Under the pieces are notes generated by a model that was not told the origin of the DNA, searched no databases, and saw only the letters and a program-made list of their open reading frames with translations. Positions 15,331-20,206 of a stretch of 44,859 nucleotides of DNA are shown here, one piece after another. Position numbers and translations under genes: made by a program. This DNA comes from a phage. Every line of letters begins with the position of its first letter. The first letter of the stretch is position 1. The DNA is taken from sequence record PX290280.1; one strand, 5' to 3'.

Positions 15331-15353
15331 ATTTACTGGACACTATAGAAGAG
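15331..15353 (+). promoter_or_regulatory. Phage RNAP promoter
   Basis: ATTTACTGGACACTATAGAAGAG. Confidence 0.8.
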
Positions 15354-15892: not shown

Positions 15893-16198
15893 ATGCCGAC
15901 TATTAGATCTCGTTTAGTAGCAGACTATGTTTATGGTCGTGACTTAAAGTTAATGCAAGATTATTTTAAAGTAATTATCTTGCTGGATGGAGAGGTATTT
16001 CACACTAAAACATTCACCTTACCCGAGTTGTTTGATTTAGGTTATTGGGGTTATACTTATCAGGCCATAGCAGACAAGGTGCTACTCAGTGTGTTAGAGG
16101 AGTGGCCTACATGCGACCAAACTTCGACTTCGGAGCTACAGTATCGGAGGACAATAATCTCATCCTGTGGCCGACTGAAGGTAATAGAATCGCTTTAA
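15893..16198 (+). CDS. Hypothetical protein (up to 101 aa)
   Basis: GGAGA ribosome-binding site; the 3' part overlaps the exonuclease gene in another frame, so the true end is uncertain. Confidence 0.4.
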   Translation: MPTIRSRLVADYVYGRDLKLMQDYFKVIILLDGEVFHTKTFTLPELFDLGYWGYTYQAIADKVLLSVLEEWPTCDQTSTSELQYRRTIISSCGRLKVIESL

Positions 16199-17139
16199 TA
16201 GATGCTGATATGCTACCCTACATCGTAGGTTATACAATCAGTGACATGACTTATGTACGAGCCACAACTCGTGTTAAGTCAGGACAAGTCACATCAATCA
16301 AAGATACACCTGAGTGTAAGCAGGCGTGTGACCGTGTGAACTCATTGCTCAACTCTTGGGTGTATGCAGCAGAGTGTGATGCAGCTAAGTTATTCATGAC
16401 GAAATCAGAAGCAAACTTCCGTGTCCGCCTAGCATTCACCAAACCTTATAAGGGTCAACGTAAGACAGAGAAGCCTCCATTCTTCTATGAATTGCGAGAG
16501 CATCTCTTAGGGGTTCATGGTGCAATCTTAGCAGATGGAGAGGAAGCAGACGACCTCATGAGTATCGCACAATGGGATAGCCACCGCCGCTTCCAGCAAG
16601 ATACAGGTAACGAGTTTCCTATTGGTAGTCCAGAGCATAAAGCATTCTCTGATACTTGCATCGTTTCCTTGGATAAGGATTTGATGATTGTTCCTGGTTG
16701 GCATCTACAGCCGGGTCAAGAGAAGAAATGGGTAGAGCCTATGGGCTGGCTTGAGTTACGCCGCAAAGCTAATGGTCAAGTCAAAGACCTAAAAGGTGCT
16801 GGCCTTATGTTCCATTATGCACAGATGATTATCGGTGATGATATTGATAACTATGCTGGCATACCTGGTCGTGGTGCTAAATATGCCTATGATCTTCTCA
16901 AAGGTTGTAAGACAGAGAAAGAATTGTACATGGCAGTGCTTGGTGCTTACAAAGCTAAGTTCGGCCATGGACAGGTTAAGATTAAGAATTACCGAGGTGG
17001 TTATCGGGTTGGCAAAGCCTTTGACCTTATGCTTGAATGCGGTCGCTTAGCTCACATGGCTAGGTTCAAAGGTGATATATGGCGAGCCGATAAGAGCCCA
17101 ATCTTGTGGGGAGATGATGCTGAATGGTTAGCAAATTAA
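16110..17139 (+). CDS. 5'-3' exonuclease (T7 gp6-like, FEN family)
   Basis: Acidic active-site blocks IALIDADM, ADGEEADD, SLDKDL and IGDDIDNYAGIPG parallel T7 gene 6 as recalled; start taken at ATG 16110. Confidence 0.8.
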
Positions 17140-17537
17140 AAGCATCGGAGGTGGCAGCTTATAAGAAGGAATTGCTAGATAAGCAAGGATGGAAATGCCT
17201 TCTGTGTGGTGGCAGTCTCAAAGCTGTCACACCTGTAAACCGTGTACTTGACCATGACCATGAGACAGGATTCTGCCGTGCTGTTGTATGCCGAGGTTGC
17301 AATGGTGCGGAAGGGAAGATTAAGGGTGTTATCTCCGGTTATGGCAAGGCGGGTAATAACCGTTACTTCCAGCTTCAATGGTTAGAGAGATTGTATGAAT
17401 ACTGGAAGTTACATAGTACGCCTCAGACAGATAAGTTATACCACAAACATCAAACGGAGGCAGAGAAGCGCGAGGCTAAGAACCGTAAGGCACGCCTTGC
17501 TTATGCAAGAAAGAAGAAGGAGGTTAAAGTTGGGTAA
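17124..17537 (+). CDS. Endonuclease VII-type Holliday junction resolvase
   Basis: CLLCGG...DHDHETGFCRAVVCRGCN motif typical of the T4 endonuclease VII / HNH family. Confidence 0.75.
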   Translation: MVSKLKASEVAAYKKELLDKQGWKCLLCGGSLKAVTPVNRVLDHDHETGFCRAVVCRGCNGAEGKIKGVISGYGKAGNNRYFQLQWLERLYEYWKLHSTPQTDKLYHKHQTEAEKREAKNRKARLAYARKKKEVKVG

Positions 17538-18537
17538 GCTTCGCAGCTTGTACAAAGACTCCGAGGTACTTGATGCAATCGAGCAAGCTACCGACGAGAA
17601 AGGTAATGTTAACTACAACGAGATGGCACGGGTATTATCGTGTCACCCTGTGGGTAAGAAGATTACCCGCCAGTTGGCTCGATACTGGCATGGTCAATTC
17701 AAGAAGACCAAGAAGAATGGTGATTACTACCAGACTCTTCTGCAAGAGGATAAGCGTATCAAAGAGGAGCGTAAGCTCAGGACTCCTGACCGCTACGAGG
17801 ATTTGGCTATTGTACCATTGCCTGACTCGCCTCATCGAAGTGTACTGGTAATCCCTGACACTCATGCACCTTATGAGCACCCAGATACCTTAGAGTTTCT
17901 GGCAGTGGTGGCAGCACGTTACCATCCAGACACTGTAGTTCATCTGGGTGATGAGGCAGATAAACATGCCTTATCGTTCCACGATTCAGACCCCAATCTG
18001 GATAGTGCTGGCATGGAGTTAGAGAAGGCCCGTGTCTTTATGCATAAATTACACAAGATGTTTCCTGTGATGCGCCTGTGTCATTCTAATCACGGCTCTA
18101 TGCACTTCCGTAAGGCAAGCGCCAAAGGTATTCCAGTGCAATATCTTCGTACATACCGTGAAGTCTTCTTCCCAAATGGAGGTGGCGACCAGTGGGATTG
18201 GCAACATACACACGTACTTGAGTTGCCGAATGGTGAACAGGTTGCATTTAAGCATCAACCCGCAGGCTCAGTATTAGCAGATGCAGCGCATGAGCGCATG
18301 AACTTAGTGTGCGGTCACTTGCATGGTAAGATGTCGGTGGAGTATGCACGTAACACACATGAGCAGTATTGGGCTGTGCAGGGCGGCTGTCTGATTGATG
18401 AGTCATCTCGTGCATTTGCCTATGGTCGTGAGTCCAAATACAAGCCAGCATTAGGTTGTGTGGTTATTCTGGAGGGTGTGCCGCACATTGTCCCGATGCA
18501 GACCAATAGTGACAATCGCTGGATTGGTAAGATTTAG
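17530..18537 (+). CDS. Calcineurin-like metallophosphoesterase
   Basis: Start TTG 17530, 6 nt after AAGGAGG. Motifs IPDTHAPY (D-x-H), HLGDEAD (GD-x-x-D), HSNHG (GNH-like) and CGHLHG (GH-x-H). Confidence 0.75.
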   Translation: MGKLRSLYKDSEVLDAIEQATDEKGNVNYNEMARVLSCHPVGKKITRQLARYWHGQFKKTKKNGDYYQTLLQEDKRIKEERKLRTPDRYEDLAIVPLPDSPHRSVLVIPDTHAPYEHPDTLEFLAVVAARYHPDTVVHLGDEADKHALSFHDSDPNLDSAGMELEKARVFMHKLHKMFPVMRLCHSNHGSMHFRKASAKGIPVQYLRTYREVFFPNGGGDQWDWQHTHVLELPNGEQVAFKHQPAGSVLADAAHERMNLVCGHLHGKMSVEYARNTHEQYWAVQGGCLIDESSRAFAYGRESKYKPALGCVVILEGVPHIVPMQTNSDNRWIGKI

Positions 18538-18555
18538 TTGACACTATAGAACAAA
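18533..18555 (+). promoter_or_regulatory. Phage RNAP promoter, SP6-like variant (ATTTAGTTGACACTATAGAACAA)
   Basis: The copy closest to the SP6 consensus. Confidence 0.7.
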
Positions 18556-18604
18556 GGGCAGGTATTAGCTTGCCCTTGATTGTATAGTGAATGGAGGAAT
18601 GAAT

Positions 18605-19144
18605 ATGTCACACTATGTATGTAAGAAATGCCACAATCGCTATGATAATTGCACCTGTGATTACAGTAAAGATGGAAAGATTAAAGCAGGCGATTATGTT
18701 GTACGACGTGAAAATTATCGGAACTTAGATTGGCTTAAGGTGTGTAACAAATTAGGTAAGAAGCCTGATTCAGTTTTCAAAGTTATAAATGACGAATCGG
18801 TTGGTAGCGCCATTATGCTTGAAGGTATAGAAAAGAGAGAATGGTATGCACCTTACTTTGAGCAAGTAGCTACTCCTCCAGTTTTATCTGAGTCCAACAT
18901 GTTGGACAACAATATGGTTACTAAGCCTAAACACTACGAGTTCTTCGAAGGTGTAGAAGTAATCACTGTCATTGCCCGTAGCATGACAGAGAAGCAATTC
19001 GCTGGTTATTGCATGGGTAACGCTTTGAAATATCGTCTGCGTGCAGGTAAGAAATTCAACACTGAAGAAGATCTGAAGAAAGCAGACTACTACAAAGAGC
19101 TATTCCAGAAGCATCGTCACGAATGTATTGATGAGGATATTTAA
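18605..19144 (+). CDS. Conserved phage protein with an N-terminal Cys-rich zinc-binding motif
   Basis: CKKCHNRYDNCTC at the N-terminus; C-terminal block HYEFFEGVEVI...GNALKYRLRAGKK...DLKKADYY looks like a widespread phage domain; GGAGG ribosome-binding site. Confidence 0.6.
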   Translation: MSHYVCKKCHNRYDNCTCDYSKDGKIKAGDYVVRRENYRNLDWLKVCNKLGKKPDSVFKVINDESVGSAIMLEGIEKREWYAPYFEQVATPPVLSESNMLDNNMVTKPKHYEFFEGVEVITVIARSMTEKQFAGYCMGNALKYRLRAGKKFNTEEDLKKADYYKELFQKHRHECIDEDI

Positions 19145-19145
19145 T

Positions 19146-19262
19146 ATGACTTGTCCTAATTGTGGAAGTGAAGAAACAGAACATGTAGTTATGTCAGATA
19201 CTTATCATTTCTACTTCTGTCATAGCTGCGACACCACCATTGAAGAGGAAGAAGTTGTATGA
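19146..19262 (+). CDS. Zinc-ribbon mini-protein (38 aa)
   Basis: CPNCG...CHSCD; overlaps the ligase start. Confidence 0.4.
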   Translation: MTCPNCGSEETEHVVMSDTYHFYFCHSCDTTIEEEEVV

Positions 19263-20206
19263 ATATCTTTGAGTTCCTAGGTCTTCCAGAAGACCACCGC
19301 AATCACCCATTCATGTTGGTGAAACATCGCGGTGAAGTTCCTGAGAAGAAATTAACTTTTCCATGTTATGCACAGGTAAAACGAGATGGTATCTTTTCTG
19401 CTGTTGTTGTTCGCACTGATGGTGTCGTTGGCATTTTTGGTCGCACTGGTAAGAAACTGGCAAACACTGAAGTGCTCGAACAAACCTTTGCTACCTTTCC
19501 GGTTGGCATTTATCTTGGTGAGCTTCAGTCTATGGCCTTTGATATCTACCTTGAGGCACTCTCTGGGGTGGTGAACCCAAATCGCACAGAGCCACTTGAT
19601 TTCATAGGCCAGCAGATTAAAGATAACCTGTATATTGACTTCTTCGATATGTTAACCGTTAAGGCATTCCATGATGGATTCACTGATGTTTCTTATCTCA
19701 AACGTTACGATGCTTTACATCGTCGCATCGGCACTCATCTTAGCGGGTACAACGCTATCCTTCCTATTACTCCTTGCCATAATGAGCGAGAAGTTGAAGC
19801 GTTTGCGCAAGAGCAAATAGACGCAGGCCGAGAGGGTGCTGTGTTTAAACTGGACTGTGATTATGAAGCAGGCCACAAAGGTTATCGTCAGACTAAAGAA
19901 GTCCGTAAGGTAACTTATGACCTTACTTGTATTGGCTTTGAAGAAGGTAAAGGCAAGTACAAAGGTAAGGTAGCTAACCTCATTTTCAAATGGAAAGGGG
20001 GCAAGACAATCAAAGCTATGTTAGGTAAAGGGTGGACTCATGCAGATGCAGAACAGATGTTCCACGATATTAAACATGGTGGACGATTGAATGTCATTGG
20101 TAAAATCTTTGAAGTAAAAGGTCTTCAGGATTCAAGCAAGGGCAACATTCGTCTGCCCAAAGCGGGAGAATTAAGACATGACAAAGATGAACCAGATTTC
20201 TTTTGA
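19259..20206 (+). CDS. ATP-dependent DNA ligase
   Basis: Motif I VKRDG (lysine adenylation site), motif V EGAVFK and a Lys-rich C-terminal region, as in T7 gene 1.3. Confidence 0.85.
   Translation: MNIFEFLGLPEDHRNHPFMLVKHRGEVPEKKLTFPCYAQVKRDGIFSAVVVRTDGVVGIFGRTGKKLANTEVLEQTFATFPVGIYLGELQSMAFDIYLEALSGVVNPNRTEPLDFIGQQIKDNLYIDFFDMLTVKAFHDGFTDVSYLKRYDALHRRIGTHLSGYNAILPITPCHNEREVEAFAQEQIDAGREGAVFKLDCDYEAGHKGYRQTKEVRKVTYDLTCIGFEEGKGKYKGKVANLIFKWKGGKTIKAMLGKGWTHADAEQMFHDIKHGGRLNVIGKIFEVKGLQDSSKGNIRLPKAGELRHDKDEPDFF

Follow-up and report, generated by a model that had tools for sequence, protein, structure and literature searches.

Metallophosphoesterases (MPEs) encoded by phages have been connected to the destruction of host DNA. 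The mycobacteriophage protein A10ZJ24 Gp48 possesses phosphodiesterase activity and damages host DNA (PMC12287305), and A1 of phage T5 was reported to be both necessary and sufficient for the host DNA to be degraded, and to be similar to nucleases of double-strand-break repair and to proofreading subunits of polymerases (bioRxiv 10.64898/2026.04.02.716235). Outside phages, nuclease chemistry has been established for the MPE of Pseudomonas putida, a Mn2+ endonuclease of single-stranded DNA (PMC7826289). Here we describe an MPE gene located at positions 17530..18537 on the plus strand of phage sequence record PX290280.1, the whole stretch of which, 44,859 nucleotides (nt), is referred to as the window and represents an SP6/K1E-type podophage genome, a Vectrevirus of the K1E/K1-5/SP6 group. 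The encoded protein belongs to an apparently phage-restricted MPE clade, carries a predicted DNA-binding-type head and is encoded in overlap with the gene for endonuclease VII (endo VII), a junction-resolving His-Me nuclease. Together these features lead us to a tentative reading as a DNA phosphodiesterase, for which, by analogy, A10ZJ24 Gp48 and T5 A1 could serve as precedents.

The gene as such is already known, since hundreds of phage genomes list it as 'metallo-phosphoesterase': public annotation carries it under this superfamily label in, amongst others, SP6 (gp23) and K1-5 (gene 22), and LL11 gp28, NTUH-K2044-K1-1 ORF11 and phi80-18 g34 are the same gene as well (PHROG 221; RefSeq 'metallo-phosphoesterase'). 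The window protein is 93-99% identical to the Vectrevirus and Zindervirus copies and 43-57% identical to those of Melnykvirinae and Slopekvirinae, and all these copies lie in the same module. On the DNA level, region 17124-18650 is 93-98% identical to Vectrevirus T145P2, mutPK1A2, K1E and K1-5, and 100 phage records match. The window copy is thus an ordinary annotated gene of a well-known superfamily, with no surprising feature in the copy itself. Points that we did not find in the literature searched, and that we regard as new, are the helix-turn-helix (HTH)-type head, the quantified coupling to endo VII and the displacement in the neighbouring kinase slot, next to the putative inteins in catalytic motifs and the separation of the family from SbcD, A1 and PdeM.

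A first-pass annotation of this DNA had called a calcineurin-like MPE of 335 amino acids (aa) with a TTG start, and both the length and the start are borne out. The coding sequence, supported by the open reading frame (ORF) list, the sequence, the PHROG match and the LL11 annotation, runs from TTG 17530 to the TAG stop at 18535-18537 and is preceded, 6 nt before the TTG, by the Shine-Dalgarno sequence AAGGAGG (17517..17523, plus strand), which is kept in LL11, SP6, VLCpiA2a and BD5. We consider TTG 17530 the real start because the LL11 annotation has the identical start and length, because homologues begin with MGK, MAK or MSK and because the codon at this one position varies, the window, LL11 and SP6 having TTG, Klebsiella phage VLCpiA2a GTG and Vibrio phage BD5 ATG, each behind AAGGAG. 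In the mechanical ORF list the frame is open from ATG 17395 to the TAG at 18535-18537; this ATG was rejected as a start, the additional segment of 45 codons being the out-of-frame tail of endo VII, lacking a Shine-Dalgarno sequence and being absent from homologues. The gene is under strong purifying selection, with 68 synonymous and 4 non-synonymous codon differences compared to LL11 and 122 synonymous and 21 non-synonymous ones compared to SP6. In RefSeq, SP6 gp23 (NC_004831 16426-17433) is annotated from the internal ATG 16519, 31 aa short; the SP6 gene shares the AAGGAGG-N6-TTG start of the window gene, and its similarity to the window protein extends from residue 1.

The catalytic domain comprises residues 101-335 (17830..18534; model and family alignment), and all features of the gene lie on the plus strand. 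Sequence and family alignment place motif I with its family-specific extension, VIPD110tH112aP114yeH117pD119, at 17848..17886, motif II with the family signature, LGD141E142aD144kH146alS149fH151dsdPnldsaG, at 17944..18012 and motif III, CHSN187H188GS, at 18079..18099; motif IV, FKH242Q (18247..18258), and motif V, CGH263LH265G (18310..18327), were located by the family alignment. The claim that all metal-binding motifs of the superfamily are present holds in the correct frame: the canonical ligands D110, H112, D141, N187, H188, H242, H263 and H265 are all found, and in 143 representatives (50% identity clusters) their conservation is 100% for D141, N187, H188 and H263, 99% for H242 and H265, 93% for D110 and 92% for H112. 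Motif III reads SNHG, compared to the textbook GNH[DE], and P114, H117, D119, E142, D144, E163, W222, W224 and Y298 are additional invariant residues specific to this family. PHROG 221 ('metallo-phosphoesterase') matches over the full length (E = 5.4e-104; residues 1-334 on profile positions 16-358 of 367). The Pfam Metallophos model scores 19.6 bits for a gathering cut-off of 21.5, and 68 of 125 relatives match it at E <= 0.01, the best at 2.5e-13.

An AlphaFold model of the protein (pLDDT 83, with two family-specific loops, residues 144-153 within the motif II signature and residues 189-194, modelled at low confidence) has the beta-sandwich phosphoesterase fold of the calcineurin-like MPE superfamily and matches MPE folds only, at identities of 7-20%. 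Since the model matches no other fold and the ligands are conserved, the MPE fold is certain, and the protein represents a separate clade of the superfamily. Structure comparison, put forward earlier as a way to assign the subfamily, thus confirmed the fold but did not discriminate between subfamilies, with Foldseek ranking five LpxH entries first, followed by Mre11, Vps29 and SapH. Neither the single protein nor a 125-sequence family profile gave a sequence match to any solved structure, even at E <= 10. This includes the solved phosphatases and bears on the idea of a protein phosphatase like the lambda Ser/Thr phosphatase, resetting the phosphorylation of host or phage proteins. We consider such a role very improbable, as the PPP motifs are absent (PDTHAP instead of GDxHG, GDEADKH without the DRG arginine instead of GDxVDRG, and SNHG instead of GNHE) and PPP folds rank below nuclease and phosphodiesterase folds among the structural matches.

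Some homologues carry insertions in the catalytic domain. In P0121 and P0167 these measure about 300 aa or more and are bounded by Cys...Asn|Cys; that of P0121 directly follows motif II (GDE|C), that of P0167 directly follows motif I (PDLH|C) and contains a LAGLIDADG_3 domain. Judged from these boundaries they look like inteins in catalytic motifs, and an intein is also probable in homologue P0170, whose 586 aa were matched in two stretches.

N-terminal to the catalytic domain, the model predicts a three-helix HTH/Myb-like domain of residues 1-60 (17530..17709; helices 10-20, 29-37 and 47-55; pI 9.5), followed by a basic linker of residues 61-100 (17710..17829; pI 10.06 for the overlapping residues 40-90) with one further helix at 72-80. 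Residues 1-100 together are basic (pI 9.2) and were modelled as a three-helix bundle with a pLDDT of 82.6; L36, L49, Y52, W53 and Q56 are invariant in this part. A Pfam scan of these 100 residues gave no meaningful match, and the assignment as a basic, HTH/Myb-like head of the DNA-binding type is that of the model. Within the family, the DxHxP motif is found in 125 of 150 representatives, 71 of which have an N-terminal extension of more than 20 aa; the catalytic module also occurs alone, in proteins of about 235 aa, in other phages. The Pfam families detected outside the MPE domain in the alignment of these 125 members are of the DNA-binding kind, among them HTH_23 (9 members), HTH_28 (4), MarR_2 (4), HTH_psq (3) and HNH_repeat (3), the latter associated with homing endonucleases, as well as HTH_38 and HTH_24, and no enzymatic fusion partner is present among the 25 of 31 families listed.

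The second line of evidence comes from the gene upstream. The endo VII gene of the window (17124..17537, plus strand; Pfam Endonuclease_7, E = 2e-12; PHROG 423, E = 2e-47) ends in a TAA at 17535-17537 that overlaps the TTG start of the MPE gene, the overlap amounting to 8 nt. To see how general this arrangement is, we analysed 80 IMG/VR loci encoding MPEs that are 43-99% identical, for 70 of which 1.2 kb or more of sequence upstream is available. In 65 of these 70 loci the MPE start lies no more than 450 nt from the end of an endo VII homologue, and in 48 of the 65 the gap is at most 15 nt or the genes overlap, a spacing that indicates translational coupling of MPE to endo VII in most related phages. 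The adjacency extends to Yersinia phage phi80-18, Aeromonas phage Ahp1 and a distant clade with a short form of the MPE.

This short form is found in an uncultured phage clade (L105-L114 and L099; viral contigs of 13-59 kb), in the order SbcD-like gene, SbcC-like ATPase gene, in some cases endo VII, short MPE, a small ORF with a seemingly lysozyme-like N-terminal sequence, a dGTP_diPhyd_N/DUF3310-type protein (nucleotide hydrolase) and a DnaB-like helicase. As a canonical SbcD is encoded there besides the short MPE, one nuclease cluster contains two different metallophosphoesterases. Other short-form MPEs adjoin RecA_dep_nuc/DUF968 HNH nucleases, VRR-NUC, NinB, DnaB-type helicases and DUF3310. 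The family thus appears, from its gene contexts, to live in a recombination-nuclease neighbourhood while being distinct from SbcD. The idea that it would be the SbcD equivalent had arisen from the SbcC-like ATPase two genes upstream of the distant-clade MPE, and was ruled out by the canonical SbcD directly upstream of that SbcC-like gene. Likewise, the Mre11/SbcD/PolD-DP1 branch shares only 12-16% identity with the window MPE, with no match at the sequence level, and no credible SbcC-like match that could represent a Rad50/SbcC partner was obtained in the window or in loci L001-L104, the sole window match being an 81-aa ORF at E = 0.004.

Several described MPEs resemble that of the window in layout or context, and for those compared specific homology or membership was rejected. 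T5 A1 is likewise a phage MPE, with relatives (P0343-P0385) that carry N-terminal HTH domains (PF13384, PF13936, PF04218, PF02796) as in the layout of the window protein, and the resemblances reported for A1, to repair nucleases and proofreading subunits, are those found for the window MPE. A1 (L005:1706-3376) differs in being a 556-aa product of a pre-early gene of Demerecviridae, and hhalign gave probabilities of only 5.4% and 7.9%. Mycobacteriophage A10ZJ24 Gp48 and D29 gp66 are phage MPEs encoded in a replication module that also contains endo VII; D29 gp66, the one of the two that was compared, differs in its length of about 200 aa and in lacking an N-terminal DNA-binding domain, and its hhalign probability was 1%. 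The P. putida MPE, PdeM (TIGR04123), is similarly encoded near an ATP-dependent ligase and an exonuclease. The PdeM system, however, has an Lhr helicase, none of which accompanies the window MPE, and membership was rejected as TIGR04123, the sole NCBIfam model matching the window protein, scores 20 bits over 33 residues compared to a cut-off of 150 bits.

The distribution of the family was mapped in three sets. By tblastn the gene was found in 643 of 50,697 phage records, nearly all of non-T7 Autographiviridae (SP6-, KP34-, PhiM1-, phi80-18- and Ahp1-like) and a few of marine or other phages; in several subfamilies it belongs almost universally to the syntenic core. A search of 1.84 billion representatives gave 1,636 relatives, 289 of them below 1e-30. 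The 185,579 species genomes of bacteria and archaea yielded no more than 12 matching loci, each of them on a metagenome-assembled contig, and several of these contigs have the size of a phage genome; no chromosomal cellular homologue was seen in these genomes, at a sensitivity limited by the search patterns. The sequence searches thus indicate a family essentially confined to phages. The earlier statement that T7 has no equivalent stands, with no tblastn match below E = 0.69 and no match of the family profile in the six frames of T7. In Nitrincola phage 1M3-16, an 82-kb phage (L008:4653-5710), the match is split over two ORFs annotated as 'hypothetical', orf82 and orf81, which suggests a frameshift, a sequencing error or a pseudogene.

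The head and the neighbours of the MPE suggest that it acts on DNA and not on the signalling molecules of host immunity. Our favoured reading, which we put forward tentatively and which may well prove wrong, is that of a DNA phosphodiesterase of the Mn2+ type that acts together with endo VII and the exonuclease. In this model the protein would be an enzyme of two domains, a basic N-terminal one of the HTH/Myb-like type and a binuclear metallophosphoesterase of the Mn2+ type; the former would hold the enzyme on DNA, the latter would hydrolyse DNA phosphodiester bonds. The MPE would be co-produced with endo VII, through the overlapping, coupled genes, and with the 5'-3' exonuclease from the middle transcription unit, and could break down or trim the DNA cut by endo VII, either the host chromosome or branched replication and recombination intermediates. 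The products of this degradation may feed the nucleotide kinase encoded next. DNA as the substrate, the nuclease activity and the role in this pathway are what we infer.

A number of observations weigh against this model. The literature searched gives no biochemical or genetic characterisation of any family member beyond single-line mentions in papers on genomes. Structural comparison does not single out nucleases, as the generic phosphodiesterases YfcE and MJ0936 score as high as DP1 and LpxH tops the Foldseek ranking, and bare catalytic domains, without any DNA-binding extension, make up 54 of the 125 representatives in which motif I is recognisable. In one phage clade the family occurs beside a canonical SbcD-SbcC pair, which implies that it does not simply stand in for SbcD. 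As an exonuclease and an endonuclease are already encoded by the phage, there is no obvious need for a third nuclease. KP34-like phages place the gene elsewhere in the module, after the DNA polymerase and an HNH gene, a relocation noted in a published genome comparison (PMC6115819). Finally, the kinases and nucleotide enzymes encoded downstream fit an end-healing role or a role at the nucleotide level equally well.

The main rival to the DNA phosphodiesterase model is built on these downstream genes. The MPE could be an end-healing enzyme that removes 3'-phosphate or 2',3'-cyclic phosphate ends, like the MPE domain of bacterial Pnkp, after which a kinase and a ligase restore and seal the DNA or RNA, the three genes forming a repair cassette; we consider this unlikely, though less so than the other alternatives. 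Its basis is the conserved order MPE-kinase-ligase, in which a ligase lies within 3 kb downstream of the MPE in 47 of the 80 loci and the slot after the MPE is taken in 17 loci by a DUF3310 kinase and in 18 by a P-loop kinase of the unrelated AAA_18 type. This slot looks, from the gene orders, like the non-homologous replacement of one kinase by another. DUF3310/T7 gp1.7, however, is a nucleoside-monophosphate (NMP) kinase and not a polynucleotide kinase, and nucleotide salvage would account just as well for its exchange with an NMP-kinase-like P-loop protein. In Aeromonas phage Ahp1 the MPE gene is directly followed by genes for a T4 Pnkp-type HAD 3'-phosphatase (HAD_PNKP, E = 1.9e-17) and an AAA_18 protein; such a context suits end healing, but as Ahp1 has this phosphatase besides the MPE, the MPE would not be needed there for the removal of 3'-phosphates. 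A similar ambiguity holds for the protein itself. Motif II reads GDxxD, which is the motif II of the lambda-phosphatase/Pnkp group, but the DRG and GNHE motifs of the MPE domain of Clostridium thermocellum Pnkp are lacking and the structural match to PnkP is weaker than those to DP1, YfcE, SbcD and Mre11. Compared to C. thermocellum Pnkp, the three functions lie in separate genes in the window, with a neighbouring kinase of the DUF3310 NMP-kinase type. Moreover, the tightest and most widespread linkage of the MPE is to endo VII and not to the ligase; phi80-18, Ahp1 and Drulisvirus have no adjacent ligase.

The first-pass annotation had further raised, as possible but unproven, a role in degrading defence signalling molecules. 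The phage proteins Acb1, Apyc1 and AcrIII-1, which cleave immune signals, have a 2H (Acb1), metallo-beta-lactamase (Apyc1) or DUF1874 fold, and with its MPE fold the window protein is therefore not a member of these families. In a broader form, the enzyme could be a small-molecule nucleotide phosphodiesterase that either destroys the signals of CBASS, Pycsar, Thoeris or type III CRISPR systems or hydrolyses Ap4A, cyclic nucleoside monophosphates or short oligonucleotides in the management of the nucleotide pool. The nucleotide enzymes encoded downstream (DUF3310, dGTP_diPhyd_N, AAA_18) and the frequency of bare catalytic domains agree with this, and a counter-signal role was predicted for another phage MPE, T5 A1, by Iyer et al. 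(PMC7824862), a protein since linked to host DNA degradation as cited above. Yet the recurrent fusions of the MPE are solely to DNA-binding modules, its gene is coupled to endo VII in a DNA-metabolism unit instead of lying in the early anti-defence region, and it is a near-universal core gene, unlike typical accessory anti-defence genes. The PADLOC defence models gave no match to the window MPE, and the literature searched holds no phage MPE that cleaves immune signals. Degradation of defence signals thus gained no support and is disfavoured by the DNA-binding-type head and fusions, the endo VII coupling and the location in the middle unit; a small-molecule role of either kind seems improbable to us, more so than end healing.

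The window genes around the MPE are arranged in the order promoter (15337), 123-aa ORF, exonuclease, endo VII, MPE, promoter (18532-18554), DUF3310 kinase, 44-aa zinc-ribbon ORF and ligase, which places the MPE gene in the middle, DNA-metabolism transcription unit. The nearest promoter upstream of the exonuclease/endo VII/MPE unit is an SP6-type phage promoter with the core TGGACACTATAGAA (15337..15350, plus strand), found by a pattern search and having 1 mismatch to the copy at 18538; the pattern has 22 matches in the window for 6 expected. The 5'-3' exonuclease gene (T7 gp6-like; PHROG 107, E = 2.5e-72) occupies 16111..17139 on the plus strand; its mechanical ORF starts at 16045, and ATG 16111 matches LL11, where gp26 measures 1029 nt. 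Downstream, another SP6-type promoter, ATTTAGTTGACACTATAGAACAA (18532..18554, plus strand; exact core match), overlaps the MPE stop codon and starts the kinase/ligase unit. A strong RNA hairpin covers the promoter core and the 5' untranslated region of the next gene (18542..18589, plus strand; minimum free energy -26.5 kcal/mol, z = -5.8, 0 of 200 shuffles as stable). A transcript from this promoter would begin with the inner 10-bp stem, and only read-through RNA would contain the full stem, so that the hairpin may serve in RNase III-type processing or in stabilisation.

The DUF3310/T7 gp1.7-like nucleotide kinase gene follows on the plus strand (18587..19144, mechanical ORF from GTG 18587; Pfam DUF3310, E = 1.2e-25; PHROG 1689, E = 2e-49). 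Its start is likely ATG 18606, which follows a GGAGG at 18594-18598, rather than GTG 18587, and in its product the DUF3310 domain is preceded by an N-terminus rich in Cys (CxxC...CxC). The 44-aa zinc-ribbon ORF (19128..19262; CxxC...CxxC; ORF list) overlaps both of its neighbours, the kinase gene at its end and the ATP-dependent DNA ligase gene (19259..20206, plus strand; Pfam DNA_ligase_A_M and OB_2; PHROG 114, E = 5e-71) at its start. In relatives the ligase start follows the kinase immediately or at a distance of about 170 nt, a variation which suggests that the small ORF is present in some Vectreviruses and absent from others. Of the earlier placement of the MPE between resolvase and ligase genes, the first half is right, as it adjoins endo VII; the MPE is not directly beside the ligase, because the promoter, the DUF3310 gene and the zinc-ribbon ORF intervene.

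Taken as a whole, these results outline a phage-restricted, endo VII-paired MPE clade, putatively tethered to DNA, which could be the third nuclease of host-DNA demolition and nucleotide salvage in the non-T7 Autographiviridae, or else a 3'-end-healing member of a phosphoesterase-kinase-ligase cassette, a proposal we regard as possible and somewhat more doubtful than the DNA phosphodiesterase model. The MPE is a conserved core gene of SP6-, K1E/K1-5-, KP34- and PhiM1-like podophages, many of which are used or proposed for therapy, and as T7, the model of the whole family, lacks it, T7 biology is uninformative on this protein. Knowing its role, be it in host DNA degradation, end repair or signal removal, would fill a gap in the understanding of how these phages take over cells, and its function is relevant to the engineering of minimal or safer therapeutic phages. 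If true, a DNA-tethered, endo VII-paired MPE would constitute a new class of enzyme activity, encoded by a core gene that many therapeutic phages of Klebsiella, E. coli K1 and Salmonella share.

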